A stretch of DNA of 24,444 bases, from contig CAJINV010000039.1 of NCBI GenBank assembly GCA_905178155.1, positions 1-24,444 of the forward strand, given 5' to 3'. The notes beneath the pieces were generated by a model. The model had not been told where the DNA came from, ran no database searches, and saw only the letters and a program-made list of their open reading frames with translations. Shown here one piece after another: positions 2,802 through 24,444 of this stretch; position 1 is the first letter of the stretch, and each line of letters starts with the position of its first letter. This DNA comes from Amoebophrya sp. A120 (lineage: Eukaryota > Protista > Dinoflagellata). Both the position numbers and the translations under genes were made by a program.

Positions 2802-3442
2802 CCACCACATCACTAAGACCTCCACACACGTTAATGTAGTGCACTACTCTACAAGTAGTTGTAGTTGCTATTCGTCAAACAAGCACGGCGAAGAAAGCAC
2901 TTTACGGGTGGTACACTTGCACGATTATCTGTAAATAAAATATCCCACTTTCCTTGCAGCTCCTGTAGGTGTAAACGAGGTACCACATATTGTATTTTGT
3001 TTCTCTCGTCTCTCTCTCTCTCTCTCTTTGCCTTCGTACTTGCCAATCTGTCACCGTCAACGGTCGTCCCTAGAAGTAGCAGCCTCTGTGTATAAGGTAT
3101 CGCGACATTGCTGACGCTTGGGTGAGGTCTAATCATGCATACAGCAGCTCGCTTGTTCACGCAAATGCTACATGGTTTGAGGATGTTGACTCGATACACC
3201 GTGGCGGCTCAGAATACTCAGTGCCTCTGCACCGAGGATCCATGTTATGGACGGCAACACCGAACGAGTAACTGTAGCTGCATTGTGGATGTGTACACGT
3301 CGAAACGCTGCGCAATGTTTGAGTGTCGTGTGCGCAAAAAGTGCAATTGCCAATTGTGCATGATGTGCGCGCAAGAAGTGCATTCCCGATGGCCAAGTGT
3401 GCGCGTGGAGCAATTGTGCGCGCCAAAAGAAGTGGTGGATAT
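2802..3442 (+). mobile_element. Non-canonical intron with IR and 6-nt DR (introner-like)
   Basis: Perfect 11-nt IR atatccaccac (2798-2808) / gtggtggatat (3432-3442). DR ggatat at 2796-2801 and 3437-3442. Removal gives in-frame AERICQKTKK. Confidence 0.7.
3009..3026. repeat. (TC)9 microsatellite within intron
   Basis: Read directly from the sequence. Confidence 0.85.
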
Positions 3443-5928
3443 GCCAAAAGACAAAAAAATCGCAGCACTCGTACAGTCTTGTCGCTTCATGCAGAACCAT
3501 CGAATCCCTGCGGACAGCCATCTTGGACTATGGCATTGCAACCGATGATGAGAAGTCGAACTTTAGCCTTCGCAGTTCATCATCCCAAGCAGCGGAAGCC
3601 CCTCCTGGATATGTCGTGGAGCTGCATTACGCAGATCCGCTCTCCTTCGCCAGCACCGGATGGGACATTGGAGCCGGTGTAGTTTTGCGAAGTTCACAAA
3701 TTTGCGGGGTCGCAAACTCAGCCGCGGCAAAGGATCGCAAAACGCTCACAGCAAGTTTATCGAAGCACTGCACACAAGCAGGGAAAGCGAAGCAATTGAG
3801 ATCTCCTATACCACACCAGGAGCACGAGGAGAATATGTTCTACCCCGCGCATAGCACGGATGACGCCGCCCTTGGTCCTTTGCTTCACTTCGTTGTGTAC
3901 AGCCTCGATTTGAAAAGTTACCTGGGAACGCGAAACACCCGTGGCGCCGAGCGCCGAGACGAACACCAGGTTGTTGTGGAGAACGCGTGGACAGGAGAGC
4001 CATTATTGGCGCAGCCTCTCAGCCTGGCCTTCAAGTGGTCGAAGGAAGTGCCCGCCCTGACAACGGTGCAGCTCGCTTGGGACGAGCTACACCAGCAGTT
4101 GCTAGAGAAAGTTCTGCGTCTTCAAATCGAAAGTGCAACAACTGATCGCGCTGTTGATTACGAAGTTGTTGTACATGGCTCCTCCATCACGAAAGGGCTT
4201 CTTCGAAACGCAAGCCCCGACGGTACTCCTGCGGACAGCGCCGGGGGAAGCGCCGATGTTCTTGATGCCCAATCAGAAGGAGGAACAGCTCGCAACCAAC
4301 TGGCATTGGCACTAAACGGGCCTGCGGGTGCACTGTTTCTGCCTGAATCCCGGATTCGGTCTCTGGCCAATGACCACGATGCCTTCTGGCGCTGGGTTGT
4401 CGCACGAGACACAACTCGGTCGCGTGCTGTTTTTTTGCCTGCGACTGACAAGATCACTCTCAGATGGGATGCGAGGCCATCATCGATTACCGTTGCGTTG
4501 GCAGTACCCAACCTGCAGAAGAACGGCTCGGAAGCACTAGAAATTTCTGCACGTATGCCGCCTTTATCTCCATTTGGCGCCGCGGCCGAACTTCCAGCCA
4601 CTTTTCGTGAAGAGATCGTAGACGAGATATTCCGAAAAAGCCCCATTTTGAAGCAGTGCCCCCAGTTCCGTGTAATGCTAGATCCCGTACCAGGAGAAGA
4701 CACGACGAGTTCTCCGACCTCAACGTCAGCGTCTAGCGAGGGACCTGATGGGAACAGCATTCTCTTCGCACCCGGAGCAGCGACCCCGTACTTCGCGCTC
4801 GCTCCACGGGGCAATGGTGTGTCCAATGTCAGGGTGCGGTTTTTTCGTCCCGAGGTTTTTGCGGCGGAAGTGCCTTTCGGACCGACCAGGGTCTTGGAAG
4901 GCGACTTGATGCGGTCTTTCAGCACAAGTGACTTTATTGGTTTCACGAGAATCTCTTTGCCCACAGTCGCTGCTGATCGCACAAAAGCCAGATCCTCCTT
5001 GATCACTGCTGTGTGTTCCAAGCTGAGCGAATTTGCTGCGACAAACCACGGCCGACACGACGAGCGGTGTAGCGAAATGGAGGGAGGCGAAGATGGCATT
5101 CGCAAAAATCTCGCTATTTATCAAAGGCAGCAGGTGGGACAAGACGCCGATAAGCTTGTGCTGCTTCACTCCGAAGAAGGTCAGCACTCCTCTCCGTGGC
5201 TTTTTTCTGACGGGGAGGAGCTAGTCCTCCGCTTTCCCCGTCGCGAAGGAACCGCTGTCGAAGTGAGTTTCGAATTCCAGATTGGCGACGCGTCGGCAGC
5301 AACGCCTGCTGTTTCACTGGGCAAAGTGAGCGCAGTCGCGAACAATCACAGTGCAGCAAGCACAGTTTCGACGCAGTGGATTGCTGCCTTTCTGGGCGAC
5401 CTCACGAAATCTGTACCTGACGACGCTGCAACCGCGCAAAGGGTCGGTGTTGTTTTGCAAGCCTTAGCTGTTCTCTACCGACCATGGGATGAGAATGCCA
5501 CCCTTCGCCGAGCGGCACCACTGGAACTCGGCCTACTTCAAAGCCTTGAGAAACTTTTAATTCATTGCACATATCCTGGCTCGCCGGCTGCAGATGGCCC
5601 TCCGAGGAAAAGGCTCCGAAGAAAAACGGCTTCACGAGACTTCTTGGCGCGCAGTTCACCCGCTATGAAAACAAATACTGGTGGGTCTTCATCGGATGAC
5701 GACAGTGCCGCTGCACTCATCGCGCTCGAAGAGGACGTATTCGGCCGAAGATCTGTTGCGGATGCGTGGCGCAATGTATGCCACCTTGAGCATCGTGCGG
5801 CACCGACAAAAGCTGCGCCGGAGCCCACATCCACAATCCTCCGCAGAGGCGAAGCCTTTGGCTTTGCTCTTGCAGCTGGTGACAAATTTACATTGAAACT
5901 TATGCAAGATGTGACACTTTCTCACTCA
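3443..5928 (+). CDS. Exon of giant gene (~830 aa, unknown function)
   Basis: Lies in the 859-aa ORF 3397..5976. Confidence 0.7.
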
Positions 5929-6249
5929 AAGTCAAGGCACCCTCTGCTTGGCAATCGCTTGGACTCTGTAGGATGATTGTCGTCACACTTCAATACGCAT
6001 CTTTGCGCATGTGTGTGAGCATAGCAGTCGTGGTAGCCATCTTCTTACTCGACCTCTGCATTCGCGCTAGACCAGCGGGCAAGAGCATCAAACTAAGTAG
6101 TTCATCAACATGAACTAGTAGATGACGATGACTCTGCGCCATTATTTTCCCATGCTCTCTAATTGTGCCATCATCCTGATCGACAAAGGTGAAAAGTGAA
6201 ACTCAACCTCAGGCGACTTCGCGCTATCAGAGGTGCGTGGTGGCACTCA
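5929..6249 (+). mobile_element. Intron with degenerate IR and 6-nt DR (introner-like)
   Basis: DR cactca at 5923-5928 and 6244-6249. Nested IR blocks gcaccctctg/cagaggtgc and aggatgat/atcatcct. A GT-AG alternative 5931..6263 is also in frame. Confidence 0.6.
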
Positions 6250-6276
6250 GCCACCTCTTCCAGATTGCTATTGATA
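6250..6276 (+). CDS. Putative micro-exon (ATSSRLLLI)
   Basis: Same frame as ORF 6355. Followed by a 66-nt GT-AG intron (6277..6342) containing in-frame stops. The join reads SRLLLIYELHVTPP. Confidence 0.45.
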
Positions 6277-6342
6277 GTTTAGGTATCAAGAGCGCGGCTC
6301 TAAGTAAAGATCAGCAACCATTGTGAGTGCCGCAGCTGCTAG

Positions 6343-8013
6343 TACGAACTGCATGTGACTCCACCAAGCGATGGCACCCAAACAGTGCTGGGCGAGTTTC
6401 CTTTCCTCCCCTCGATAAAAATCGCAGATGGGCCTGTGGCGAAAGTATTTCAGAATCTGATCGCAGAGATGACAGCGCGCGTCTCGGGGCGCGGGCAAAA
6501 GCGGACTGCGGACAACGTAGAAGTTCATCAGGACCTCAGTGGATCGACACGATGGGTTTTCAGTTTGGAAACTTACTTGATGCAGGAGAAGAAGAAGAAG
6601 GTTGGGTAGCTGGTGCCGTCCGTCGATTCGCAGTCGCACGATTTGCTCGGCCAGTCGATCCAGCAGCAGCTGCAGATCGCTCTCGTACTCCTCACTGCAC
6701 TCCCGGTAGAGTCTGTTTTGGATGAGGCCCGCAAATTGTGGACCTTCGTGTGGGACTGCTTTGGGAGCGTTGCGCGATCTGTCGCAGATTATAGAACATC
6801 CCTCATTTCAACTTCGTATTTGATCGTGTGGATCTCCGCGGTGCAGGAATTTTCGGAGTCTATTGACGAAGTTCTGGTTGAAAACCACTTCCGACTTGCC
6901 ATGTTGCGGGCAGAAAAAGACAAAATTGTGAATACCACGTCGCAGGGAAGTTGCACGCGCAACGCCGACGGGGGGACAGGGACGTCTACCACAAGTGGAA
7001 CCAATCCTCCTGCAAAGGTTAATCTGGTACGTGGAAGCCCGCTCGATTTCCTGCTCCTGGAGAAAACTGCAATCGGGCACATAGCGACCCTGCTCACTTT
7101 CGACGGCTTGTTCACAGATCGGCACTTTGCCTCCGTTGTAGAGGACACACGACCGTCGAGATCGGATGCCCATCTCGCCGCTGGAGAGTCGAACAGGGCA
7201 CGCCCCCAAAAAGAGTCCAGCCGCCTCCTCGAGTTGCTGGTCTCTTCAAATTTTCAAGGTGACGAGGAAATGCTGCCCACTGCCTACTTGCCGGCCTTGT
7301 TTCAGGATACGCGAGCAAAGCTTGTCAAGATTCTCAAAGACCAGGTTCGAAAGCATGTCTCAAGCGGAGAAGCAGCCTACAAACGCCTGCGGGAAGGGCC
7401 ACACGCAATCGCGACATTGAAGCAGGTGTGTGGCGATGCCGATAATAACTCAGCGCGTATTCGCCTCGAAGCTTTGTTTGCACTCGAGCACGAAGCTAAA
7501 GAGAACCGCATTTCGGGGACCGAGTTGAAATCGTGGCTGCAAAAATTCAAATTTGAAACTAGAACAGGAACCACTACGACTACGTGTGCGGGCACGACGG
7601 CCGGTAGTTCGACGACACCAAGTTTCGTAGAGGCAAACTTTTCCGAATTGTGGGATCGACTGTCCAGTTCGTGGAACCAAGCTGCTCTGAATTCGCGACC
7701 CGTTCTTCCTGCAACACACGACGTTGGCACCGTTCGCTCCTCTACTGATTTTGCGATTTTTCGGCAACCGATCGTAGGAACTGAAAACACCGTCGCAGCG
7801 GTCGCGGATCAATTTATGCGAAGATGGGCGTCTATTCGTAATACTGAGGAACTCCACCGCAATTCCGCAGAAAAGCGCTTTTTGGAGTTTTGCAAGACGT
7901 CACGAGTGGACATGCAGAGCCGCTTCGCGGTGAAGCAATGGCTTGCAGCAGAGTTTGTGTCCTGGGTGAAAACCGCCGATCCTCCGGTTCCAAATTCCGA
8001 TATCAGAATGAAG
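6343..8013 (+). CDS. Exon(s) of giant gene; in-frame TAG at 6607-6609 is probably inside a short intron
   Basis: ORFs 6355..6609 and 6613..8043 share a frame. Candidate donor AAG|GT at 6601 with in-frame CAG acceptors at 6633, 6654, 6663, 6666 and 6669. Confidence 0.6.
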
Positions 8014-8173
8014 GTATCTGCAGACAGACTGTGGAACAAGTAGTTGAAGAGCACACGACAGCAGGGCAGTGCAAGAAGCCCGCCTTTTTGAAAAAAGCAT
8101 ACGAATGATCCGTCATACACTGACACCTTGTAGAAAAGCACATGTCTGATATTTCGACTTCTGCGCACTTCAG
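8014..8173 (+). other. GT-AG intron (donor 8014 or 7987)
   Basis: AAG|GTATCT ... CTTCAG|GCA, phase 0. IR atatcaga (8000-8007) / tctgatat (8145-8152) would favour the earlier donor at 7987. Confidence 0.6.
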
Positions 8174-8694
8174 GCAGTCATTCGCACGCGGCTAAAAGAT
8201 GCGAACAAAGGGCTGACGCTGAGTTGCTTTTCACATGAAAACAACAACACTGCTAGCACGACCTTGCACGATGAGGATCTCCCGCTCGTTTCGTCTGCGT
8301 CATTTACTCGCATAGAAAAATCACTGAATCTAGAAGAGCTTGATGCCATGCAAGAGAATATCGAATTTTCAGCCTTCCTGGACCTGCTGACTCGCAACCT
8401 CCCAGTTTTGCAGCTTGTTGTATGGGCGCCAGGCGGCGGTGAAACGACCGCGGATCGATGGAAAATTGATAGCATCTGGAAGCAGCGAGCGCCCCAAAAT
8501 ACGCAGAACGCCTTGCCCCCAGGCAGCGACAGTGATGAGCCTGTGCTAGAATTTCACTTCTTCAAGGAAGACCGAGAACTTGTAGTACAACCTGCAGCAA
8601 CGACGGATGGCGGAGACCCGGCTCAGCCTACGCCTAAACCGCAAACTAATAGCTCTGACGGTGAGGCTGCGCCGAAGCCACAGCCTCGAAATAT
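8174..8694 (+). CDS. Exon of giant gene
   Basis: Frame of ORF 8264..8728 is open back past 8174. Confidence 0.6.
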
Positions 8695-9074
8695 CGCATG
8701 TGAGTGGCGTCTTGATGTTTCCCACTAAGCTAAGCGACTAGTACTGGCAAATAATACACAGCAAAAAGACGAAGGGAAGATGCAAAGGTGCTCCGACGGA
8801 CTGAGCTTCAATGATCTTATGTTGCATCGTGTAGGTACAGCCAGTAGCGGTCCGGAACCCACAGTAATGCATGATACTGCAAAAGGAAACCCCGAGAAAG
8901 GAGTTGCGTCGGTGAGGCCTGAGCCGCTACCAGGAGATGCTGTTGATGTAGATTGCTTAACAAAAAACTCTGGTGCAGCGGCATGCCTGTTCCTTTGTTG
9001 TTGTGCTGGCTAAGTATGTATATTCGTAACAAAACTTTTAGGCTGCTGGAGAAACATCACACTTGAACTTCGAT
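8695..9074 (+). mobile_element. IR-bounded intron (introner-like)
   Basis: Perfect IR tgatgtttc (8713-8721) / gaaacatca (9051-9059), plus terminal atcg/cgat. DR at gives in-frame PRNMLLLAL. A GTGAGT donor at 8700 is an alternative. Confidence 0.55.
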
Positions 9075-10216
9075 GCTGCTTCTTGCACTACATTCCCTGG
9101 TATTGCTTCCGGAAGCGGCTTCAGTAACGGAAGGCGAGTCTGTCTCGGTGTCGGAGGATCAGAAGAGCTCGCACTCAAATGAGAAGCCTGCCGTTCGTGG
9201 ACAAGTTTGGTGGATGTGGAAGCTCCTAACACAGGTTCTCACAACGCTCATGGGAGGGCTTCCAGCGCCCTCGGCTGACTACCTCCAGACGAGATTTTTG
9301 GGTGCGCCCAGTACGATGCCGGAGCCCACACAGCAGCTGGGTCTAGAGTACATGTTTTCCGAGCTCAGCACAACGATTGTGCACACACACAAGCTCGACA
9401 GTACGAAGATGGAGGGCAGCGGCTTTCCTGAAGCTAATTCTGCGTGGTCCCACCTGCAGACCCACGTTAGGGATGAAATTTGCGTTGTGGCACGCGACAG
9501 GGCTGCTTGTGCCGTATCAAAACTGGAGGGGGTGCTTGCAGCAACGCTGGTTTGGGCAAACACTCCAAAAAATCTGCAGGTGCTGAAGGAAGCTTCTGTC
9601 GCAAAAGAGAAGGGTGAGGAAGCTACCAATACTGACTCTTCAAAAAGAGATCCACTCTCACAGCCTCAAAGCACTAGCCCCGCTCCGAATATGCGACCTT
9701 CACCTGCCGCTGCGCCCCATGGCCATTCGTCGAGCGGCACGCAAAATTCTGCAACTGCAATGGGTGCAAGTGCTGGCTCTCTACCTGGCGCACAAACAGA
9801 ATATGTCGGCTTTCACGACGTGGCAGAACTATTCCGGCTGCTCCAAGTGTCACGCCATGCTGGCGCTTTTGAACAGGCTTTCACTTTGTTATCCGATGGC
9901 ATGCCGCAGGACGGCGTTCAGGCACTTACTGCGGAGCTTCAGGTGATATGGCTTGCGGACCAGCTGCGGCACGCGAATCCTCGGCCGTCCGATATCGCTG
10001 GCATTGACAAGCATATTCGAAACCGCACGAAAACCATTCAGCAGTCTACTTCTTCCGCCGACGACTATACCTACGGCAATTTATCCAGCATAGAACTTGT
10101 CGTTTCCCTAGCAGTCTCCCCGTTCGCGGTAGAAGAAGTAGCGCAGTTTTTTGAGATCCTCGCTGCGCATACAGAAATTCTTACACCCGCTAAGGTTCTG
10201 GCAAAAATTAGAAGAT
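9075..10216 (+). CDS. Exon of giant gene (helical region)
   Basis: Lies in ORF 9073..10320. Confidence 0.7.
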
Positions 10217-10597
10217 GCGAAGTATCTCAAAGCCAATCACGATTATTCGCACCCGCACGCTCTCACTGCAGATTTACGTGCCTGCTTGTAATGCAGTTTG
10301 CATTGAAATGCGCAATGTAGTCCTGAATGCCCAAGAAAAAGAATTTGTATGTTCACTATGTATGCATTGATGTCTCTCGCGCGATGAGAGACCCTCCCCC
10401 TCCGTTGTTGTGACTATGAATAGCGTGCTTCCAAAATATAGCTGTACGGACACGCAAGATAAAACGCAATCTCTTCGCACCGGGACGGAGTCGGAACGGA
10501 TGCCCAGCACTGATCTTCCTTGTGTGCATGCTGAGCTCGCCTTTAGGTACTGCGGTGTGCCGGGTGCGAAGCTATGTTTTTCCATTTCGATACGCAT
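10217..10597 (+). mobile_element. IR-bounded non-canonical intron (introner-like)
   Basis: IR ttcgcacccg (10246-10255) / cgggtgcgaa (10561-10570), plus terminal gatgcg/cgcatc. DR at gives in-frame KIRRSAVSRG. Confidence 0.65.
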
Positions 10598-11546
10598 CCG
10601 CTGTGTCAAGAGGGGCGCCAATCTCGCTGAGAAACTGCAGCCAAAAGCTGATCAAGCTGGTCCTTGAACCGGCCCTAGAAGGATGGAATCTGCGCAAAGA
10701 TGAAAAAGAGCGCAAGGCACTCGACAGTCTCACATACGAACTTACTGGCGCCTGGCGTTCGCAGGAGGTCATGGCCGTGATCAAGCGCTTGCGGGACTCA
10801 GTGGCGGCGTTTCCAGAGGTTCGAGGGGTGCTAGAACTCTTGAATGATTACCAAATGGCAGAGGATTGGCGGCCTCTCGGAACTGGCATGCTAGGCCAGG
10901 AGCGCGATGACAGCAAAAATGCCACCCTGGTTAGTGTTCGCAGCGTGCAAGCGACCATCACAGAGTTCTTGAAAGTGACCGAACCTGCGAAGTGGAGCAC
11001 AGTCCTCCATTCGAAATTTGTGGCCATTCTTTTCCCCGGAAGCACAGAACTTTCTCCCGGAGCTGTCGCTGGGCACATCGAAAACGAGGCACGGACGCGA
11101 GCGGGCAGCACCAACTCGGAATTTTTGAAATCTGCAGGAGTGAACCTGCCGGCTAAGCACGACGAGATTGCGAGATTCCCCGTTGCCGATTCCCTTAACT
11201 GGAAAACTTGGGCAGACACCGTGCGCAGCAAGTTTGCTGCTGGAGAGGAAGTGGACATGGTCGAGGTTCTCGCTGTGCTAAAGTCTGGCTGGCACAAGAC
11301 TTTCCACGAAGAACTACGCGCTACACAAATGTTTGCTGTGATCACCCACCTTGACGCGTACAAATCCGGAACAAAAGGCAGACTCGGACAGGTTCCAACG
11401 GGTGAAGGCAAGACAGCCATCGTCGGCGTCCTCGCTGCTGCTTTGTCTCTGCACGGAAAAAAAGTCGACGTTATCACATCCTCGTCGGAACTCGCCAAGC
11501 CCCAAGCAGGGAAGCTAAGCCAATTTTTTCGCCGATTCGGCGTACG
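10598..11546 (+). CDS. Exon with SecA-like DEAD domain start and Walker A
   Basis: LRATQ ... GRLGQVPTGEGKT ... GKKVDVITSSSELA matches SecA xPxxVQ ... AEMxTGEGKT ... GxxVHVVTVNDYLA. Confidence 0.88.
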
Positions 11547-12007
11547 ATGAGCAAAAACAAGGATTGGTTTTGTCATGCGTTTCTACATCATACTTATTAT
11601 AGTATTAATACCCACGAGATAATTGCAACATAGCACAATAGCCTTGATGAACATATGAGAGCGAAATTTGATCGGCACAATTCGGTAGAAATAATCTCGG
11701 CGTTTCTATCCGAAGAAAGAAAAACGTCAGTCAAAGTCAAAAAGAGAAGCAAGATGCGACACACAATTGCCATGAAAGATGACGCAATACGTGCCGTTGC
11801 CGCCAGCAACCATGACTTTGCAGCGCAATACATGCTGCTGTTACGCTCATGGAAATCATTCTGCGTCAAAGGAAGATGAAGACGCAGGCAATGTTGAACA
11901 ACAACTGTAATTCTACATCATGAGTCTCATAGATACTAGTCGGACTCAGACTTTTCTCTCTTTTCTTTTCATACTCAACCTGCCTTGTTTTTTTTCGCGC
12001 AATGCCG
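11547..12007 (+). mobile_element. IR-bounded intron (introner-like)
   Basis: IR aaaaacaagg (11553-11562) / ccttgttttt (11983-11992). DR cg gives FGVRIGSDY. The exact junction is uncertain. Confidence 0.55.
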
Positions 12008-12679
12008 TATTGGGTCAGATTACATTCGGACTCCGAACAAGAAGGTGCGCTCGACTGGGACGAACACTAGATTTGCAGGCAGCGACGTGGTGTATGGTTC
12101 TCCCAGTCTTTTCCAGTGGGCTGACCTGCGACACCGATTCTCTCGAGAACAAGTTGAGGCACGGGATCGCGACACGCGGCCATACGACATTGCAATTATT
12201 GATGAGAGCGACTCTCTCATGGTTGACGGGACGGCGTCACAAGCATTGCTGTCAAGCCCGTTGATGGGCGCTCACCATCTACACAACTTCATGGCTTCCG
12301 TGTGGTTAATTGTGAAAGCGCAAAAGCAACATCTCAAGCAGTTCGAGGTGGACGGAGAGCTTTTAACTTTCGAAGTGCCACCACAGCTCCACACGATAGA
12401 GACTTGGGAAACATACAAGGACGTGCTAAAGGCGCACAACGTCTCCGTTCACGAGTCCCAAGCGATCGAAAACCGACGGGATCCGGAAACGGGGGAGCGT
12501 TTATACAAGTGTTGGACGGACTTTCTCACACAGAAGGTGGAGGAGGTGCTACGCAAGAGCGTCCGCGACTTCGAGTGGCACGCTAAGAGCCACCTGCCGG
12601 GAAAGAAGCTTACAGATGAGCAGATTTCGCAGGTCAGGCAAGGTGACGATCCGAACAACAACGACGTGGCTCCATATCA
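12008..12679 (+). CDS. Exon with SecA-like Walker B
   Basis: DVVYGSPSLFQWADLR (SecA DITYGTNNEFGFDYLR) and AIIDESDSLMVD (SecA AIVDEVDSILID). Confidence 0.88.
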
Positions 12680-13155
12680 GCGGCTCCATCACTTGAATCA
12701 TTATCATGATGGAAGTATCTTCCCTGCCAAGAGTCGGGCTGCAGCAACGTGAAGAACCTGCATTAACAAAAGCGTTGAGGTGCATGCATTTTTCAACTCG
12801 CGACACAGCCTTTCGCACCCCTTGCCTCTCTAGCGGAACTAGAGCGCCATATTTCCCTCTGTGAACATTTGTATAAATGTTAAAGTCTACTTTGACTATA
12901 AATCTGCCGGGCATGAGTCGCTCTAGGTGAACATGCATTTTTCTCGTCGGTGGCCACTACTTTGCTCAAGAGAATATAGAAGAAGCACGGTACGTCTTCG
13001 GCAGCGCTCCTAGATTTGATCTACTTACGCTTTTTTGAAAGATCACCCTTTTGCTCATGCAAGTGGAAGTGGCATGATGAAGTTATAAGCACAACTAGAC
13101 CGCTTTCGTTACGTACACCCTTGGAGGGAATAAGTTTTTGCCGCGATTGTGATCA
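12680..13155 (+). other. Intron, probably non-canonical with DR atca
   Basis: atca at 12676-12679 and 13152-13155 gives in-frame VAPYHRKFIVE. The IR is only gcggc/gccgc, and other in-frame junctions exist. Confidence 0.5.
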
Positions 13156-13363
13156 TCGAAAATTCATCGTGGAGCGAGGCATTTATGACTGGTCCAGAAA
13201 TTGCGTACACGCGCAGTTTATCTATGAACCTGGTGTGCAGTACCAACTTCGGGGGAAAGGCGACGGCACGAACATGGAGCTCAGCACGGTGGACGCCGAC
13301 AATACGGGCACTATCTCCGACTACCAGCAATACAGTGGTGGGCTGCACCAGATTTTGCAAATC
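13156..13363 (+). CDS. Exon matching the end of the SecA preprotein-crosslinking region
   Basis: VDADNTGTISDYQQYSGGLHQILQI resembles SecA VDEFTGRxMxGRRWSDGLHQAxEA. Confidence 0.88.
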
Positions 13364-13697
13364 TATGGCCCGGACATATCGTTTTTTTTCATCTCGTTCG
13401 ACATTTTTGAATAGCTATTTTGCATGCAGCTTCTGAGCTGAAAAAATGCATGAATGTGCTGGACAATTCACAATCTGATGACTACACATGTAGCTACACC
13501 TGTGAACTAGTCAGCCTGAAGCTATCTAGTCTTGTGGAATCGTGGGAAGCCAGAAGACTAGATAGCTTGAGATTAACTAGCTAGCTCATGACGTTGATTT
13601 ATAATATATTCGCACAAGCCAGCTCATGGCGATTATCCACGGCCGCAAATTTTTTCGAACGAGTTCGAAAAAAACCATCTGTCCGGGCCATAAAATC
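13364..13697 (+). mobile_element. Non-canonical fold-back intron / MITE-like introner with 5-nt DR
   Basis: Terminal IR tatggcccggaca / tgtccgggccata (13 nt perfect, ~37 nt imperfect). DR aaatc at 13359-13363 and 13693-13697. Removal restores GLHQILQI|KHGL. No register gives GT-AG. Confidence 0.92.
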
Positions 13698-16412
13698 AAA
13701 CATGGCCTCCGTATGGAGCAGCCTCAAAGTTTTAGCACCAACTTTCTGTCGAACGTCAAGTTCTTCAAGGGCTATGATCATGTGTTTGGACTGACAGGGA
13801 CGCTCGGTGATCAGGCTACGCTGAAGCTCATGCACGAAGTGTACGGATTAGACTTTTTTTTCGCGCCCGGCTTTAAGCAAAAGCAGTTTTACACTCTCCG
13901 GGGTGTTGCTCTGCACGGTAAGGACGCCGGAAAGACCTGGCTTGAGACCGTGGTTCGGCGCGGCCGCGCTGAAGCATTTTTGGGACGTGCGGTTCTGGTG
14001 GTGTGCGAATCCATCAAGAAAGCGGATGCCATACACCAGGCCTTCGAAAAAGCGGCAAAAGATGCAGCCGACCATGAGTCGGAGGGTGGGCCTGAATTGC
14101 CCGACGGCTCCAGACATAACGTATCCCTGTTCAGGTACACCGCAGAAGAGGAACGCGATGCTGCCGTAGAAAGGATCGTCCAGGCGGGTGACGTCATAAT
14201 TGCCACAAATATTTCCGGACGGGGCACTGACATCAAGCTTTCGGACGAGGTGGAAAAGAATGGGGGTATGCACGTCAGCGTTACGTTTATTCCAAGAAAC
14301 AAAAGAGTTCAGGAACAAAATTTCGGTAGAACTGCGCGGACAGGGCTTCGGGGCACAGCCCAGTTGATTGCGGAAGCAGAGAGAGATGTCCCTCCATCTT
14401 TGGGAACGGACGACGGTCGGGACACCCTGCTGCAGTGGCTTTTGGCACGACGCGACGCGCACGAGCGTAACAGCATTCGAAACGCACCAGAAGACATCCG
14501 GAAGACACTGAATAAGGACAAGGTGTTTGACTCCGCTCTGGCAATGCTTGCAGAGCTTTCGCTCGTCAGGCCGAAACCCAAACCAAACGCCCCCAAACCC
14601 GTTTTGGGAGACGAGTCCTGGAAGTCGATAAATCGCCTTGCCTTCGAGGAGCGGTTTGCTCTATGGCTGCTCGCAAGGGGCGCCGCGCTCGAAGACGCAG
14701 ATGACCCCGAGGTTTTCTTTGAGGAAGATTTTGCGAAACCCTTGCGGCAAGAGAAGGTCGGCAAAACTAGGGCCTCGTCGCCTTGTTTGCGACGACCACT
14801 ATACCCGCTCGTCACGAACCCGTACCACCTTGTCAAACAGGCAAACGAGGAGATAAAGTCGGGGCTCTATGATTGCGCCTTGCTTTTGCTCTCAAAGGCG
14901 TCCGAGCTGGACGCTGAATTCAGCGAAAACTGCAGCGGTGGTATGTGTGTTGAGGCCCGATACTCTCGCGGGTTCGCCCACGTCGCAAAACATAACAAGG
15001 AGAAGCCTGAAACCGAGTCCTCGTGCGAGACCCAGTACCCAAAAGTTCTTGCTGTTCTCAAAGAAAAAATTCTTCCACCATTAGACGCTGTAGATATGTG
15101 TTGCCATGGTGCTGGCAATGAGCAGGGTGTCTGTATCAAGGACCTTTTGCATCGTCAGGTCGACCAGCATCGTGCGATCTATCACGGAATGGTGCAACAA
15201 GTACAGTCTGTCATAGGAGATCCGGAGGCCGATTTTGATAAACGAAGGGAGCGGATTTCTGAGCAAATAGACAAAGCTGAAGACACGCTTCGAAAAAGCC
15301 GGAAGGAACGCGCAGAGTACGACAAGATGAGTGACGACGACCGCGTGAAATTTGTAAAAGACAGAGGGATAGAGAATTCCAAGCCTACCGACGAGGACCT
15401 CCGTAATCATCCGCACTTAAAAACCAAGACTGGTGCTTTGCTCGCCTTCGAAGTGCACGTAGTCATCAAAGACGACGAAATTGCAAACGTTGAAGAACAA
15501 CGCCGAGAGTTGCGCAGATCCCGATCCTCGCTAAGGAAAGAAAAACGACAATGCCGCAAAGAGGAATCCGCAGGAACCGCGCAATCGAAAAGAGTCTTGG
15601 GGCTGCTCCGTTGGGCTCGGGAGAACAACCAGGAACTCGGGTTCAAGCGAGTTCTCGACATTACACAAAAAGATGGCTTCAGGTATTTTGTCGGGCCAGA
15701 CCAGGACCACTCTGAGTTTGAAGCAGTTTCGAACATGCATAAAAAGTGGGGGTTAATTGGAGCGCCCGAGTTCGAGGTGTGTCCTCCGTTTGACCGGGGC
15801 GCCTTCGCAGTGTTGATTATTATAGGGGTGACGCAGATGATTGGAGGTGCGGCTCTTGCTGTTTTTACCCTGGGCGCCGCAGCCAACTTCGGTGTGGGCC
15901 TTGTGGCAGAGGGCGTGAGCGATATAATCACAGCGGTCAAGGATATCTTGATCAATCGGTCTTTCGACTGGGGTCGCTGGGGCGCGGAAAAAGCGGTAAG
16001 TCTGGTGTTGAGCCTCGTTACCGCCGGAGTGGGCGTGCTCAAAGAAGCGGCCCGAGTTGCGAACGCTGTGGTCAAGGGCACTGTGGAGTTGAGCAAGCGG
16101 ACCTTAACGGAGGGCGTAAAAGTCGTGGCCCGTACCGCTTTTAAAGTGATCATCAACGAAGGTGTGCAAGTTCTGGCGAAAGTCGCGGTATCGGACGGAC
16201 TCATGCCGCATCTAAAAACTGCAATCAAGGTGCACTTGAAAGATAAGGTGAAAGCTTTGTTGTCAAGCTCTGCTGAATTCGAAGCGCTGAAAGAGGCGGA
16301 TAGTGCGGCTGGAAACAGACAGAACGTGTCGAACGTTACAAAGGCTATTGAAAGTTTGTTACGCCCGGGACAGAATGTAAGTCAGGTCTTTCAGACTCTG
16401 GCAGGGGAAATG
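13698..16412 (+). CDS. Exon with SecA-like helicase C lobe, TPR-like and coiled region, and hydrophobic Gly/Ala-rich segment
   Basis: Motifs GLTGTLG, GRAVLVVCESI, IIATNISGRGTDIKL, GGMHV and RVQEQNFGRTARTGLRG (SecA GMTGTA, ATNMAGRGTDI, GGLxV, QLRGRxGRQGDPG). Hydrophobic stretch at ~15801-16034. Confidence 0.92.
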
Positions 16413-16920
16413 GTACCAAAACATGGACGCCCGCACCGCTCTATCATATTCATATACATGTGATTGTATCTTGGCAGGCGTTTCAGCTGCGACTTCCTAA
16501 TTAGTTTTATTGTCGCACTTTTTCAATGTCGGCGTAATCTCATTGCCATTTGTGCATAATGCGCGCTGCAGCATGTTCCTTCATACGATGGCTGCAGATG
16601 ACCGCTGCATGAGGAATACGCATGATCATCAAGATATGTGTTTCCCAGTGCTCACTACTAAGTGAGTCTGCGAACCAACTCAGCCACCACCTCTCTAGTG
16701 CATATTGGAATTTTCCAACACCAGCGAAAGGAATTATCTCCTTGCACCTGACTATCAGCACACAACAGTACGCGGAAAGATGATTCGCTAAGAATCATAC
16801 GTCGTACAGTTGCAGTGTGGGAGGGAGAGTTGCAGTCTCCTTTAGTCAAAACACCACAAGAATATCATGATAGAGCGGGGGGGGGGCGTTTGAGTGTAAT
16901 ACGATTTTGGATGCGACCAG
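16413..16920 (+). mobile_element. GT-AG intron with subterminal IR
   Basis: Perfect 12-nt IR ccgctctatcat (16436-16447) / atgatagagcgg (16867-16878), flanked by acgccc/gggcgt and ccaaaa/ttttgg. ATG|GT ... CAG|AGA, phase 0. Confidence 0.7.
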
Positions 16921-17147
16921 AGAGTCGCAGGAGCGCTCACGAAGCTCGGCTCGGGCTTAGCAAGTGCCACGAGACCGAGAGCCGGCGAGGCAATACAGGC
17001 AATAAACCTTGCGTTGACAGTAACAGAAGCCACGGCGCAGGTGACGCAAATCGCAACGAATCTAGAACCGCAACTGCTCAGTGTGATTCGGACGCTGCAT
17101 GACGAGCACAAAAAGGTTCTCGAATACGTAGAGGGACACTACCAAAG
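16921..17147 (+). CDS. Exon of giant gene missed by the ORF track (amphipathic helices)
   Basis: Open frame RVAGALTKLGSGLASAT...VLEYVEGHYQ bounded by AG and GT. Confidence 0.65.
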
Positions 17148-17810
17148 GTGCAGTGTTTTTTTCATTTCATCATGAATTGATATGCTAGTCGGGAAATGCC
17201 ATTATGATGCTGATGGATAATCAACTTTCACCAAAATAATTCATTTGACGACGCTTTCGCCTAAGAAAAAGATTTAGCATACAATGCGCAGCATCACTCG
17301 ATGATATCAAATGCGCAAGCAAGTGCTAAGGGGTGTACACATCCCGGCAACGGGGTGGTAGCCCAACATCAAGCGATATCAGCTGAGCGTGTGAGCCCTG
17401 CGCGGGGCGCCTGGCGACTCAGCTGCTGGGGCGTCTGCGCAACACTCCGCGTACGTGTCTCTATTCCAAGGAATTTTTCCTGGATGAGTTGCGAAATGAA
17501 GCAGACACTTATTGCACCCGCCAGACAGGAGTAAAGATACGAAATCGGATTTGTTTCAGTTTGGGGATGGCGCGCTTGGCCTTGTATGTCTCGCAGTTAT
17601 TGTGGTACAATCTCGCAGAGGGCCTCCGCTTCCGCATTTCCGATGATGCAGTGGCGGTGCCTGTCTGTGTTTCTCCTGACCTACTTCTTCATTGTGAGAT
17701 AAATCGCAGCCGAACCTTCCGACCTTTTTCATTCCGAACCATTTCCATTCAAGGCATTCTTGTGACACCAAAAAAAAAAAGTTTGGAAAAATAGAAAATA
17801 CAATATACAG
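17148..17810 (+). other. GT-AG intron with weak terminal complementarity
   Basis: AAG|GTGCAG ... TACAG|T, phase 2, gives HYQSARTS in frame with ORF 17941. Confidence 0.7.
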
Positions 17811-18600
17811 TGCGAGGACCAGCGTCGAGGCAGCAAATCCGCAAGGTGATGGGGACTCAGACCCGATCATACTAGCAAATAAGATAACCCGCGAAACGCA
17901 AAGAAGGATTCAGGCTGAGATAGGAGCTCCAAACGCAAGGATGTCGGCGCAGTGGCTTAAGAAATTGGAGCCAAACCAGATAAAGACCTATGTGAGTCTT
18001 GCTCATTATCATGAAGAGAAAAAGGCGGGGAGGGCCGGCCACGCCGCTTGTTTGACCACAGCATCAACTGTATTAAGCAACCAAAACCAAAACAGTACCA
18101 CTACTGGCGGAGCCGTTGAAATCCAGTCTGTGCCGCCACCACTTTCTCCTCCTGGTCGTTGGGACGCCAATTTTCACGCCGACGACGGACCGCAAGCGAG
18201 AGCCTCGATAAAACGCATGGGCCGCGGCGACGCCGAAGAGGAGCTTTCGGAGAAAGCAGCTCAGGGGGTAACAAATATCGTCGAGGGAGCAACGCTTGCA
18301 GTGTCGTCGACTGCTGCAAGCGCGTGGTGCGCGAAGCGCTTTAAAGATTTTGATGCAAAAACGATGCAGTCTCTCGATCAGGTGCATTCCGTCAACCGCA
18401 TCACTGCTAATTCCGCTTCCAGCGACAACGCCGCGCAACAGCATGCGCAAGCACACGCGGCCGAGACCCAGGCAGCTGCATTGGCCGGCTTATCCAAACA
18501 AGAGCGACGCGAGGCTAAGCGCGCAATGAAAAAAGCGGATATGCAAGTGGCTGGAGACGTTGCCGCCGGGCTTACGAATGATGGCGAAGCGGGTCTTCAT
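17811..18600 (+). CDS. Exon of giant gene (linker before protease-like domain)
   Basis: Frame of ORF 17941..18630 is open back past 17811. Confidence 0.7.
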
Positions 18601-18888
18601 ATCATATGTAAAAACGTCCCCACCCCATAGTCAAGATGGCAAATCTGCTACACAAATCTCCAAGTTTTGGAAGTTGTGCATGACAAGTGTGCCCCTGCAG
18701 TGTAGTGCTGTTTAGCAAGGGAAACTGCATAAGTAAGCCGTTTTGTCATCCTGTTTACAGCGTCACAAATTTTTCCAAAACACGGTCGGAAATAGCTCTC
18801 TTGGTGGAGCTGCGCATTATAAATGTTCGCGTCATTGCACATTTGCGTGACAACTGGGGTGGGGACATTTTTCCTCAGGATACTTCAT
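18601..18888 (+). mobile_element. Non-canonical intron with IR and 6-nt DR (introner-like)
   Basis: IR gtccccacccca (18616-18627) / tggggtggggac (18855-18866), extending to aaaaa/ttttt and tatc/gata. DR cttcat at 18595-18600 and 18883-18888. The join gives EAGLH|HLGEAAHVVGRPIVV. No GT-AG register. Confidence 0.88.
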
Positions 18889-20013
18889 CACCTTGGCGAG
18901 GCTGCGCACGTCGTCGGGCGACCAATCGTCGTGCGCGACAAGAACGGAGACTACGTCACCACACTGGGAAAGGGGCTTCCCGGGGAGCCGGTAGACCTAT
19001 CGCACAGCGTGAATGCCGATGGATCGGGACACTGGTCGCTAACGCGCGAGGTCCGGAACCCAAACTATTCACCCCCTGGTCAGGCGGGAGGCGTAAATAA
19101 TTGCGCTTTCAATGCTATCGCTGCTGCCGTCTACGGGGATCAAGGTCGTGGTGGAGAACTTCGAGGCAAGACTGTGGCTGCTATTGCGAAATCGCCGGGC
19201 CGCATCGCAGCTGTTGCCTCAGATATACGCCGCTACCAGCACTACATGGGAGGAAACTGGAAGAAAGAAAACGGCCACTACATGGTGCTATCCAAAAAAT
19301 CTCCCATGTGGACAGACATCGTGAAAAAGGCCCGAGCAAAAAACGCTTTGTTTGAGGATATCGACGATAGCAAAGTCGAATTCATCGAGATTCATTTTTC
19401 AGCGAAGGGAACCACAGGCACGGGGGCCGATGATTTTGGATGTCACCTTACCGGCGTCCCTTTTTGGTCAAAGCAAACGGGCACGCACAAGAGGCACGTC
19501 AAGGAAAAGATGCACTGCCACTACGAAGCCAACACGAAGACGCACACAGAACATGGACGCGCTGCGGATGCCAAGAACTACGGAAATAATATAATTGTCT
19601 ACGCGCCCGCTCACAGAATGAGCCCAAGCCAAGCTGCGATGAATACCGAATGGCCGAAGCACGGCTCTCTTTATAATGATAGCAGTCACCTAGCGCGCTT
19701 TCACCGAGAAATCCTACAACAGGCGAGGCTCAATTTATTGAATGGACTGCAAAATGCCTATGCGAACAGCAAAGGGCGTGGGAAGCCGCCATACCCGATG
19801 GGTCCCGATCCAGATGGAAAGGTGATTGGATTTCCGAAAACCAAAGCAATTGCGAAGCATGCGGCGAACATCTTCGGAGCTAACCCCAACGCGTTTCTCG
19901 GAGACCGGAACGCCAAAGATGCAATTTTTTTTCTAATGCAACACATGGAGGACGGCCGGTTTTTAAACCAGCCTGTCGGATTCTGGAAACAGGTCCAAGG
20001 ACAACGTCGGTAA
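18889..20013 (+). CDS. Last exon: permuted OTU-like protease, GG motif, His-rich C-terminal domain
   Basis: GRPIVV ... GHW (His at 19030) ... NNCAFNAIA (Cys at 19102) ... ELR ... YMGG (GG at 19249-19254). Stop TAA at 20011-20013. Confidence 0.78.
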   Translation, partial: HLGEAAHVVGRPIVVRDKNGDYVTTLGKGLPGEPVDLSHSVNADGSGHWSLTREVRNPNYSPPGQAGGVNNCAFNAIAAAVYGDQGRGGELRGKTVAAIAKSPGRIAAVASDIRRYQHYMGGNWKKENGHYMVLSKKSPMWTDIVKKARAKNALFEDIDDSKVEFIEIHFSAKGTTGTGADDFGCHLTGVPFWSKQTGTHKRHVKEKMHCHYEANTKTHTEHGRAADAKNYGNNIIVYAPAHRMSPSQAAMNTEWPKHGSLYNDSSHLARFHREILQQARLNLLNGLQNAYANSKGRGKPPYPMGPDPDGKVIGFPKTKAIAKHAANIFGANPNAFLGDRNAKDAIFFLMQHMEDGRFLNQPVGFWKQVQGQRR

Positions 20014-21667: not shown

Positions 21668-21975
21668 GTGAGCATACAGAGCGAGAAGTAGGTCCCAGAA
21701 TGACTAGTGATCTGGATCCTTAGAGTCTGTGATGAGTGGATGACGACCATGATGAAACTTGAATGATGAATCTTCACAGGATGCAACGCAGCCAGAGGCT
21801 TTCGCCCTGTCTGCTGAGAGATTGAAGTGTTTGTGGTGTTTGAAGAACCTTTTCAGGTAGAAGCTTGAGTCACTCAGTGTGGCAGGTGTGTTCAAAGTCC
21901 AACACTGCGCTGCGACTTAGACGCCAATCTGTGCTACTTCACACTAGTGACAGTAGATTCATTGAAGAAAACAAG

Positions 21976-22590
21976 ATGACTGCGGTATCCGCAGAGATCG
22001 CTGCGAAGCTGCCGGATGCGACTGGCTGGATCGAATGGGATCGCTCTGTCCGTGAGGAGGTCGAGCGCCTCGGACTTAGCGTCTACTTCGACAACGTCAT
22101 CGTCAATCTCGGTCAGCCCGGCCTCCCCGGAGGTGCCGGTCAGCAGGCTGAGGCGGTTGCTCAGAAATGGCGCAACCTGAAGGCCGCGATGCTGAAGTCC
22201 TTGACTGGTTCTTGTAAGACCTGGCTGCACGCTCGCCCGAATTACAACGCTCTGAATGCTGGAGAGTTGTATTTGGAGTTGCGTGACATTGGTCATTACG
22301 ACCAGCAGAACAGGACCCAGCAGAAAATCCGTGTTGCTTGTCTCGAATCGATGAAATTCGATGACCGCGACCAACAGCAGGACCCGCCTTCCTTTCTCGC
22401 CAAGGTCAAGCGCGTCATGGACCAGTCCCCTGCGGTGTTTCCGCCCGACCAAGCTCGTCCCGCTGAAGATCGTCAGGCCCAGAACATCTTAGACTACCTG
22501 CCCAAGATGTTTTCCAAGGGTTTCAAGGACACGATCGCGCGCATGGTCGAGGACGGTGCCCAGTTGACGATGCAGCGAGCAGATGGGTGA
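21976..22590 (+). CDS. gag: Gag, N-terminal (capsid-like) part
   Basis: First ATG of ORF 21865..22590 is at 21976. It overlaps the CCHC-containing ORF in the +1 frame and has the same C/G-ending codon style. Confidence 0.7.
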   Translation: MTAVSAEIAAKLPDATGWIEWDRSVREEVERLGLSVYFDNVIVNLGQPGLPGGAGQQAEAVAQKWRNLKAAMLKSLTGSCKTWLHARPNYNALNAGELYLELRDIGHYDQQNRTQQKIRVACLESMKFDDRDQQQDPPSFLAKVKRVMDQSPAVFPPDQARPAEDRQAQNILDYLPKMFSKGFKDTIARMVEDGAQLTMQRADG

Positions 22591-23119
22591 CAAGTTGGCG
22601 ACCCGTCTGCAGGCCATGATCAAGGACGGTGAGTACAAGGTGGAGAGCTCCAGCTTCGGCAAGGCGTTCCCGACGGTTGAGTACGACGAGGACAAGACTG
22701 CCGCTTCCAAGAAGCGCCCCCAGGCTAGTGGTAATGATGAGGACGGTAAAACTTTCATGTCTGCGACTGCTCTCAAGCGGTTCAAGGCTAAACTGAAAAA
22801 GAAAGTTACCGCCGAAGTCCACGCAAGCCAGGGTGGTGATTCTTCTACCCGTAAGAAGGGGAAGGGCAAGAAGGACAAGAAGTTCAAGGATTACAAGAAG
22901 AATATCCAGTGCTACAAGTGCTATGACTGGGGTCACTACGCGCGGGAGTGTCCTACCGCTGCTGCGTCTACGGGTGGGAAACCCAAAGGCAAAGGCAAAG
23001 GAGGGGGCAACGCGTACACCGGCTTCGGTGAACCCACGGTCTACCAGGACTGGGGTGGTGCCTGGGTCTGGCATGATGCTAGCGCTGGATCGGGATCCGG
23101 AAAGCCCGGAACGAGCTGA
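22586..23119 (+). CDS. gag: Gag, C-terminal nucleocapsid part with zinc knuckle
   Basis: CYKCYDWGHYAREC (CX2CX4HX4C) at 22910-22951, with Lys/Gly-rich flanks. Confidence 0.85.
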   Translation, partial: GDKLATRLQAMIKDGEYKVESSSFGKAFPTVEYDEDKTAASKKRPQASGNDEDGKTFMSATALKRFKAKLKKKVTAEVHASQGGDSSTRKKGKGKKDKKFKDYKKNIQCYKCYDWGHYARECPTAAASTGGKPKGKGKGGGNAYTGFGEPTVYQDWGGAWVWHDASAGSGSGKPGTS

Positions 23120-24444
23120 GATGAGGATCAAGATCCGGAACGGGGAAGATGTTGTTTGAACTTTGAGGCGGATGAAGTGCATTACAAGAGTTTCGTAGAT
23201 TCGGTTAACTCTGCTGCTACTATGTTGTCTGTTGTTGATTATTGTGCAGCCAGTTACCTAGGTGTAAAGCAGGTAAACCTAGTTGACAGCTGTGCAAATA
23301 GATACTTATCCAAGCACGCTGATGATTTTAAGAACATCACGGGCCGACGCTGTACCATCAACGGAACAGCTGGCGCACGGGATGGATTTATAGGAGAATT
23401 GCAACCCAACCAATTAAACCTGCGACATGGTGTTTATTTTAAAGATCTACCGAAGGACATTGATAGGATTTTGCCTTGGCTCGGTGAAGGTAACATGTCA
23501 CAAGTAGGATGGGAGCTTACCTTTCACAGCACCGGCGGAACCATTGCTCACACTGGTACCGGCCGCGTGTTGGACATAAAGAATCGTCCCAGAATGTGCC
23601 TTCCCGTCCTTGGTTGCCACTTGTTTGACCTGCAGGAGGCAGATGCTGCGGACGGCTTTGTCTGTACTTCTGTCGCCGAGGTATCCACTAGTAGTTGTTA
23701 CTTGACTAAGTTAGAGCTACATAGACGTCTTGGACATTTCCATGTGGACGGGCTCAACGTCAGTTGTCCCGAATGCGATAGAACTAAAGGACAGAGGAAC
23801 CCACATGCGAAAGTAAGAAATGTTGAGAATTATAAACCTCAACCACTAAAACTATTAGCGTTTGACTTCGGTGTCGGTGTGAAGCCCATGTCTATCATGA
23901 AGCACACCTGTGTCCTTGTTGGTATCTGTGACGCCATCAAGAAGTGTTTTGTCAGGCCTCTTTTGTACAAGAGCGACTGCGTGGAGGAGTTGGAAGACAT
24001 TATCAAAGGCATTCGCGCAGACTGGTCATTGTCCTTGGATGGCAAGGTCGTTTGGTTCCTGAGACGGGACAATGAGCCAGTTCTGGGCAGTGAGCACATG
24101 ACCAAGGTCATGCAATCGCTGCAGATCTGTGACGCTCCAATTGTTCCTCACAATCCAGAGCAAAACGGAACCTGCGAACGTTTTATGCGGACGCTGTTCG
24201 GCTCCTGCCGTACACTGTTGGTTCACGTCGATCGCCGTCCGTGGTCCTATGCCATAGTCTACAGCGGTGATTGTTGGGACCGGCTGCCGCATAAATATGC
24301 AAAGATGCCAGAGCATGACGGAGAGACTCCGATAGAGATCCTTGAGAAGAGGACAGGAAGGAACAGTGCGAAGCAAGGCATTGGCCTGCTCAGGCGTTTT
24401 GGTTGTCTTGTTTACTTTCGTGAACAAATCAAGACGGACAGAGA
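23120..24444 (+). CDS. pol: Pol (aspartic protease, HHCC, DDE integrase), partial; absent from the ORF track
   Basis: Stop-free frame to the window end. LVDSCA (Asp at 23285), HRRLGH...CPEC (23720-23776), and D 23864, D 24068, E 24176 with D(35)E spacing. Confidence 0.92.

Follow-up and report, generated by a model that had tools for sequence, protein, structure and literature searches.

A spliced giant SecA-like gene of Amoebophrya sp. A120 with a predicted permuted OTU-like protease and a tip exchanged after a Gly-Gly pair

Can a single eukaryotic gene join a SecA-like ATPase to a membrane segment, a protease and an exchangeable C-terminal tip, and what might such a protein do? This question is raised by a stretch of 24,444 nucleotides from Amoebophrya sp. 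A120 (contig CAJINV010000039.1, the whole of which is called the window), in which a preliminary description had proposed a giant SecA-like protein of this kind. The gene is real and looks transcribed. We consider it likely that it encodes one giant protein, in which a core of motor, hydrophobic segment and permuted OTU protease is conserved and the tail is exchangeable; the protein would be the precursor of a polymorphic effector, cut by its protease after a Gly-Gly pair (GG).

The window is eukaryotic DNA, in which long plus-strand open reading frames (ORFs) alternate with lower-GC gaps. An eight-exon model (9067-20013, plus strand) encodes 2626 amino acids (aa) without an internal stop, or 2242 aa when counted from 10596. 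As shown in Table 1, the parts follow one another in the order SecA motor, TPR-like/coiled region, hydrophobic segment, protease with His before Cys, GG and a 252-aa tip. Splicing was examined in four transcript-like assemblies (X1-X4) from two samples of one study, which may also be the source of the window; their RNA nature is a guess of the search tool. Six of the seven joints of the model were seen in these assemblies (10220>10596, 12699>13152, 13358>13693, 16412>16906, 17145>17809 and 18594>18883), and the frame was kept across all six, an outcome expected by chance about once in 730. The DNA run X5 contained 0/6 of these joints and reads straight through the intron 16413-16905. Joint 10220>10596 was found in a single X1 contig, with a short side of 33 letters. 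The seventh joint, at about 11541>12003, is absent from the transcript-like contigs and was placed from a terminal inverted repeat and the kept frame. No single contig covers the whole transcript, but one exon holds both the second motor domain and the hydrophobic segment, and the observed joints tie that exon to the protease and the tip. The raw RNA runs X7 and X8 gave no reads on the window and X9 gave eight, all on a repeated intron, so that these runs are no test of splicing. The transcript-like contigs continue beyond 20600 (about 1.1 kb past the stop in X1), giving a long 3′ untranslated region.

None of the seven introns is GT-AG as cut; one is readable in this way, and five have clear terminal inverted repeats. 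The intron 18595-18882 is present at high copy in the genome (X5 depth 9519 in its bin versus about 44 elsewhere). Non-canonical introns with inverted repeats, or introners, have been described for Amoebophrya, and those of the window are alike (PMC7789003).

The motor motifs were all found in one spliced frame, as the preliminary description had claimed: TGEGKT (Walker A) at 11398, DESD at 12201, GLHQ at 13340, GLTGT at 13788, TNISGRGTD near 14205 and motif VI, QNFGRTAR, at 14316. They are kept in the aligned relatives. Pfam assigns SecA_DEAD to two exons and P-loop_SecA to the long exon (E values in Table 1); the three exons that follow it gave no match. In 9 of 10 relatives a portion of the preprotein-binding domain (PF01043) was detected; the corresponding exon of the window, 13152-13358, has no Pfam match. 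A quick motor tree was made from 40 rows, with long branches and no plastid SecA among the rows. A branch (SH-aLRT 100) separates eleven bacterial SecA, SecA2 and secondary SecA_DEAD rows from all others. The window motor grouped with two Amoebophrya proteins (100) within a 27-row clade (99), which holds rotifer, butterfly, Rickettsiaceae, Legionella and further proteins. Judged from this tree, the window motor is outside canonical bacterial SecA. In the region 9000-15500, X5 contigs fragment and the depth is raised in some motor bins.

After the motor, the TPR/coiled region of the preliminary description stood in part: Pfam assigns TPR in relatives and not in the window protein. In SecA, the scaffold/wing part holds the two-helix finger that pushes the polypeptide. 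A likeness between the TPR-like region and this finger, seen with the family profile against the E. coli scaffold, was gone when the region was tested alone against shuffles. The Gly/Ala-rich hydrophobic segment is present as described, with hydrophobic stretches at 15798-15906 and 15984-16050. It is the most hydrophobic 19-mer in 28 of 29 carrier proteins and is strongly conserved in the alignment. Among the 10 motor-exon relatives, eight have the segment, and seven of these eight also have the protease (one truncated, one weak); the two ankyrin-type relatives have neither.

The protease is recognized by a catalytic pair, His at 19030 and then Cys at 19102, which is followed by GG at 19249-19254. 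His precedes Cys in 32/32 aligned rows and both are invariant, and the two Gly are found in 30/32 and 31/32. The structure model of the protease has a mean pLDDT of 83; a fold of the last exon from its sequence alone could not be used (pLDDT 35.6). EschOTU of Escherichia albertii (6w9s; Z 6.5, rmsd 3.8, 103 aligned, 11% identity) was the sole match with a Z of at least 5 among 48,161 chains. The next match (Z 3.3) was yeast Otu2, on the first 58 residues of the model. Weak Foldseek rows (E 0.3-2.4) include many OTU chains, which align over half of the model, as a permutation would cause. Moreover, the two halves of the Pfam OTU profile were matched in reversed order, both below the cut-off: profile positions 50-119 on the first part in P0025, and 5-41 on the later part in P0012. 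We predict from the model a circularly permuted OTU fold for this domain. In canonical OTUs, Cys comes before His; in the window domain the order is reversed, as in EschOTU, which shares the permuted topology and in 2020 was the only OTU structure described with permuted threading (PMC7396840). In contrast, EschOTU is a trans-acting deubiquitinase (PMC7396840), whereas the window domain precedes its own GG. The OTU type of the protease first proposed agrees with the EschOTU match, and the order of the pair had to be reversed. In P0003, P0004 and P0005, the tip itself includes another copy of the module, which is degenerate and lacks the catalytic pair.

The sequence after GG behaves differently from the sequence before it. 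When the last exon was searched against 1.84 billion representatives, 20 matches were obtained: 18 on the protease part, one on the tip only (P0011) and one, a canonical OTU protein, on the Cys half. In 16 of 17 long relatives, the C-terminal BLAST alignment stops at residues 2369-2384, and GG is 2373-2374. Mean identity to the window protein is 32% up to GG and 5% over the next 10 residues. Thirteen chosen pairs of relatives were compared. In the pairs with replaced tips, motor identity is 74-89%. For example, P0034 and P0037 are 88.6% identical in the motor, 74.4% in the protease and 5.0% in the tip, and the corresponding values for P0017 and P0026 are 74.2%, 55.2% and 2.5%; the tips of P0034/P0033 and P0016/P0034 are 6% and 10% identical. 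In some pairs the tip is kept (P0033/P0037, 85%). A conserved core with varying sequence after GG, and a tip of about 250 aa (252 aa, to the stop at 20013), had both been anticipated; neither is the tip invariant nor does the motor join the 11 bacterial rows of the tree.

Tips cut after GG from 35 protease-bearing proteins, together with P0011 and excluding P0001 (truncated) and P0021 (canonical OTU), made a set of 36, which fell into 17 groups (BLAST E<=1e-3); three of the groups consist of tips shorter than 70 aa, which could reflect faulty gene models, the choice of GG in P0022 is doubtful, and the P0002-P0020 link sits in a downstream segment. The same tip classes appear again on different, strongly supported branches of the motor tree. 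The largest class requires five changes on this tree, four of which are forced by starred branches, and tips are overall still more clustered on the tree than shuffles. The P0028 tip is Ntox33 (E 1.7e-23), and the P0002 tip is a borderline Peptidase_M91 (E 4e-5, 24.4 bits versus a cut-off of 25). By their motifs, other tips may resemble BECR-type RNases, HNH or ParB-like nucleases and a papain-like enzyme. The window tip has one relative, P0011 of A120 (40-43% identity), and gave no match in Pfam, NCBIfam, PADLOC or PDB and no usable Atlas match, with the last exon and P0011 as queries. P0011 begins at MGG and may be a split gene model. Another A120 protein, P0055, is 90-93% identical to the window over two motor exons without being the same sequence. 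We infer that P0055 and P0011, whose records are two locus tags apart, are a single gene split by annotation; by its sequence, this gene may be a close paralogue or an allele with a faster-changing tip.

The part order is kept in Amoebophrya, rotifer, butterfly and intracellular-bacterial relatives, the closest being Amoebophrya proteins. In intron-less bacterial genes, a single ORF encodes all of the parts in this order (P0002 and Megaera WPX99843). On Megaera and Rickettsia plasmids (L001, 347-20815; L003, 1615-20872), a long SecA-like gene with the hydrophobic segment is followed by a short one (5225+1589 aa and 4927+1475 aa). The protease-GG part of the long gene is clear in Megaera and was seen by eye in Rickettsia; the short genes do not have these parts and could encode a helper motor. 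No relative turned up in phage records or when viral, genome and metagenome contigs were scanned by pattern. Sequence searches of the PDB gave no informative match; the sole strong row concerned an NHL repeat with which P0029 begins, and is unrelated.

From this architecture we propose the following mechanism. The hydrophobic segment would insert into a membrane, and the ATPase would give the force, or the unfolding, needed to move the protease-tail part across it without SecYEG. The permuted OTU would cut in cis after GG and free the tail, a predicted toxin. Cleavage in cis is plausible because OTU proteases read Gly-Gly and because the permutation puts the C-terminus of the domain near the substrate site. 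The target is likely the host cell or a co-resident microbe. Amoebophrya is an intracellular parasite, which kills bloom-forming dinoflagellates. We regard the self-cleaving cassette with a variable effector as quite probable; given such a cassette, motor-driven delivery across a membrane is slightly short of an even prospect. The fullest version of the proposal is tentative: a class of single-chain self-delivering toxins in eukaryotes and endosymbionts, in which a SecYEG-free motor drives its own C-terminus through its own segment and a rethreaded OTU, with the tail entering its own active site, releases the tips.

Several observations weigh against this proposal. For the protease, a Z of 6.5 counts as middling on the comparison tool's own scale, nothing reached E<=0.001 in Foldseek with the protease model, confidence in the model is low around GG (pLDDT about 55), and the residue two after the His is mostly Ser or Thr, whereas an acidic residue or Asn is usual in OTUs. 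The parts also occur separately: two segment carriers (P0007 and a Legionella plasmid gene) have no protease, and P0028, a 561-aa record, has no SecA and starts with a lipoprotein-like leader. P0028 supports the protease-GG-tip cassette and not the SecA fusion, and the cassette travels with other N-termini. When tips were scanned alone, 0/13 had a convincing Pfam match, and the window tip has no family. Downstream of the gene, no window ORF of at least 80 aa looked like an immunity gene or an orphan tip, and nothing of the kind is annotated beside the three plasmid genes; this would suit a protein that acts on another organism or is tightly controlled through its cleavage. Finally, sequence tests detected no homology between the region after motif VI and the SecA scaffold/wing, of which a diverged structural equivalent is possible. 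A comparison of 25 family segments with 8 canonical segments gave an hhalign probability of 0.18, versus 0.06-0.38 for 15 shuffles, and PF07516 (scaffold/wing) had no match by Pfam in the window or the relatives, or on the three plasmids that carry such genes (0/3). Self-threading of the C-terminus by the SecA motor, put forward in the preliminary description, is possible but has no support so far. By its architecture the protein appears to be an incomplete member of the polymorphic toxins, with no immunity gene seen and with toxicity and delivery as predicted properties.

The main rival is an intracellular sensor-executioner. A variable N-terminus would sense an invader, the ATPase would serve as a switch, the segment would anchor in or perforate the cell's own membrane, and the released tip would kill either the invader or the cell itself, with no threading involved. 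The N-termini of relatives do vary (HEAT repeats, Ulp1/RickCE-like proteases), individual rotifer species have several paralogues bearing different tips, no immunity gene adjoins the window gene, and scaffold/wing homology is not detected. However, intracellular bacteria have the same order on plasmids, a setting in which action on the host is more plausible, and PADLOC, a library of anti-phage systems only, matched 0/7 proteins. We judge this explanation unlikely. Another explanation, a membrane-anchored deubiquitinase/ATPase, is quite improbable: ubiquitin would be cut in trans, the GG would be an uncleaved structural or auto-inhibitory mimic, and the tail would be a variable targeting domain. 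The closest fold, EschOTU, is a deubiquitinase, and CE-clan protease domains occur elsewhere in many relatives, but exchange exactly after GG and enzyme-type tips fit released cargo better. An artefact, in which neighbouring genes or a plastid-type translocase were wrongly spliced together, is very improbable, since the unseen joint, the missing full-length transcript and the split annotation of the close relative (P0055, P0011) stand against six in-frame joints, single-ORF bacterial relatives and a motor clade apart from bacterial SecA.

How does the proposed effector precursor compare with known systems? A giant eukaryote-type secA clade, with transfer to Wolbachia and Amoebophilus, has been described (PMC3639933), and giant secA genes are listed under secretion in PMC5062602. 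Its members (Wolbachia wBol1_1092/1091, insect, Daphnia, Tetrahymena and Amoebophilus proteins) are like the window protein in their very long size and divergent SecA domain, and in forming a clade apart from bacterial SecA that is common to eukaryotes and endosymbionts; their long-plus-short tandem pair recurs on the Megaera and Rickettsia plasmids. The comparison with wBol1 and the published clade proteins is by description; in our tree, the window protein clusters with butterfly, rotifer and Rickettsiaceae proteins. The available parts of the two papers deal with the SecA domain and gene transfer only, and mention no segment, OTU, GG or tip. Bacterial polymorphic toxins share the conserved N-terminal part, the processing peptidase and the variable C-terminal domain; OTUs occur there in both processing and toxin positions, and Ntox33 is such a toxin domain (PMC3482391). 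In contrast, the window gene is eukaryotic and spliced, and its candidate delivery part is a SecA motor and not T5/T6/T7SS, RHS or PVC. No immunity gene or orphan cassette was seen, and the window gene is closer to the immunity-free, host-directed effectors of Amoebophilus, among which OTU and SecA-like domains are reported, with OTUs as processing peptidases (PMC3482391).

Canonical SecA and SecA2 have all of the motor motifs, with about 24-26% identity between the window protein and E. coli SecA over two stretches, but the window protein lacks a detectable scaffold/wing and falls in a separate clade; its long exon, the part compared, scores far below every NCBIfam SecA cut-off. Secondary bacterial SecA_DEAD proteins are covered in PMC4452313. 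Giant SecA_DEAD proteins of Omnitrophota, for which self-export has been proposed, are alike by description in having a motor without scaffold/wing, membrane segments and peptidases, but are bacterial, tens of thousands of residues long and carry other cargo (bioRxiv 10.1101/2023.11.21.568195). Our literature search, with most subscription journals outside its scope, found no paper that combines SecA with a hydrophobic segment, a permuted OTU, GG and a variable tip. The window protein apparently belongs to a SecA clade that is known but lacks an explanation, and carries a tip-swapping, probably self-processing cassette that seems undescribed. For the giant SecA-like proteins found in insects, rotifers, protists and endosymbionts, on record since 2013 without a function, this suggests a role that can be tested, and it names a candidate effector for Amoebophrya. 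If the proposal is true, tip-swapping polymorphic effectors extend to spliced eukaryotic genes, and the rare permuted OTU is a widespread self-processing module. GG is also an exact boundary for mining many enzyme tips of no known family.

The gene extends further than was first described. Its start had been placed at 10598, but it lies upstream: the exon 9067-10220 is spliced on through 10220>10596, and the start is probably further upstream still. ORFs from about 5160 onward have weak, in-order matches to the N-terminus of the Amoebophrya relative P0022 (E 0.002 twice). The gaps between the upstream ORFs are flanked by short inverted repeats, and no RNA joint was seen there. A leader-like start at 9073 was discarded as a candidate, since further exons probably lie upstream of it. 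From the sequence, the full protein would probably have about 4200 aa with ORFs 3364-8728, and about 4600 aa if ORF 1589-2839 is added.

Table 1. Features of the SecA-like gene in the window
Feature	Position	Strand	Remarks
Probable further exons upstream	ORFs 3364-5976, 6343-8043, 8150-8728	+	Weak collinear matches to P0022 N-terminus
Exon, N-terminal helical region	9067-10220	+	5′ edge uncertain; joint in X1; matches P0022 868-1245 (E 2e-9)
Exon, start of SecA-like motor, Walker A at 11398	10596-11541	+	PF07517 E 3e-10; 3′ edge putative
Inferred intron GT..AA	11542-12002	+	10-nt terminal inverted repeat 11553-11562 / 11983-11992; frame kept
Exon, Walker B DESD at 12201	12003-12699	+	PF07517 E 5.5e-6; joint 12699>13152 in X1 and X3
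Exon, end of preprotein-binding-like insert, GLHQ motif	13152-13358	+	One X3 contig shows both joints
Long exon, second motor domain, TPR-like/coiled region, hydrophobic segment	13693-16412	+	PF21090 E 1.6e-8; 10 long relatives
Gly/Ala-rich hydrophobic segment, predicted membrane-inserting helices	15783-16067 (residues 1699-1793)	+	Conserved; Kyte-Doolittle peak 2.26
Exon, helical linker	16906-17145	+	Both joints in X1, X2, X3 and X4
Exon, linker; its terminal GEAG opens the protease module	17809-18594	+	Joints in X1-X4
Introner-type intron CT..TA	18595-18882	+	Terminal inverted repeat arms 18600-18627 / 18855-18882
Last exon, protease part up to GG	18883-19254	+	Conserved His, Cys and GG; structure model
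Last exon, 252-aa variable tip, His-rich, candidate effector	19255-20013	+	One relative, P0011

Further features of the window were noted. ORFs 3-1229 and 1589-2839 are long and have no Pfam match. A stop at 6607-6609 separates two ORFs in the same frame, and the DNA run X5 reads a different letter there. When X1 and X2 were compared with the window, 13 of 15 listed differences fell on a window A, which hints at an assembly artefact. Downstream of the gene, a retrotransposon starts at about 21840; its LTR-retrotransposon-like ORFs (21844-24442) contain a zinc knuckle (E 9e-4) and a weak integrase core (E 0.017).

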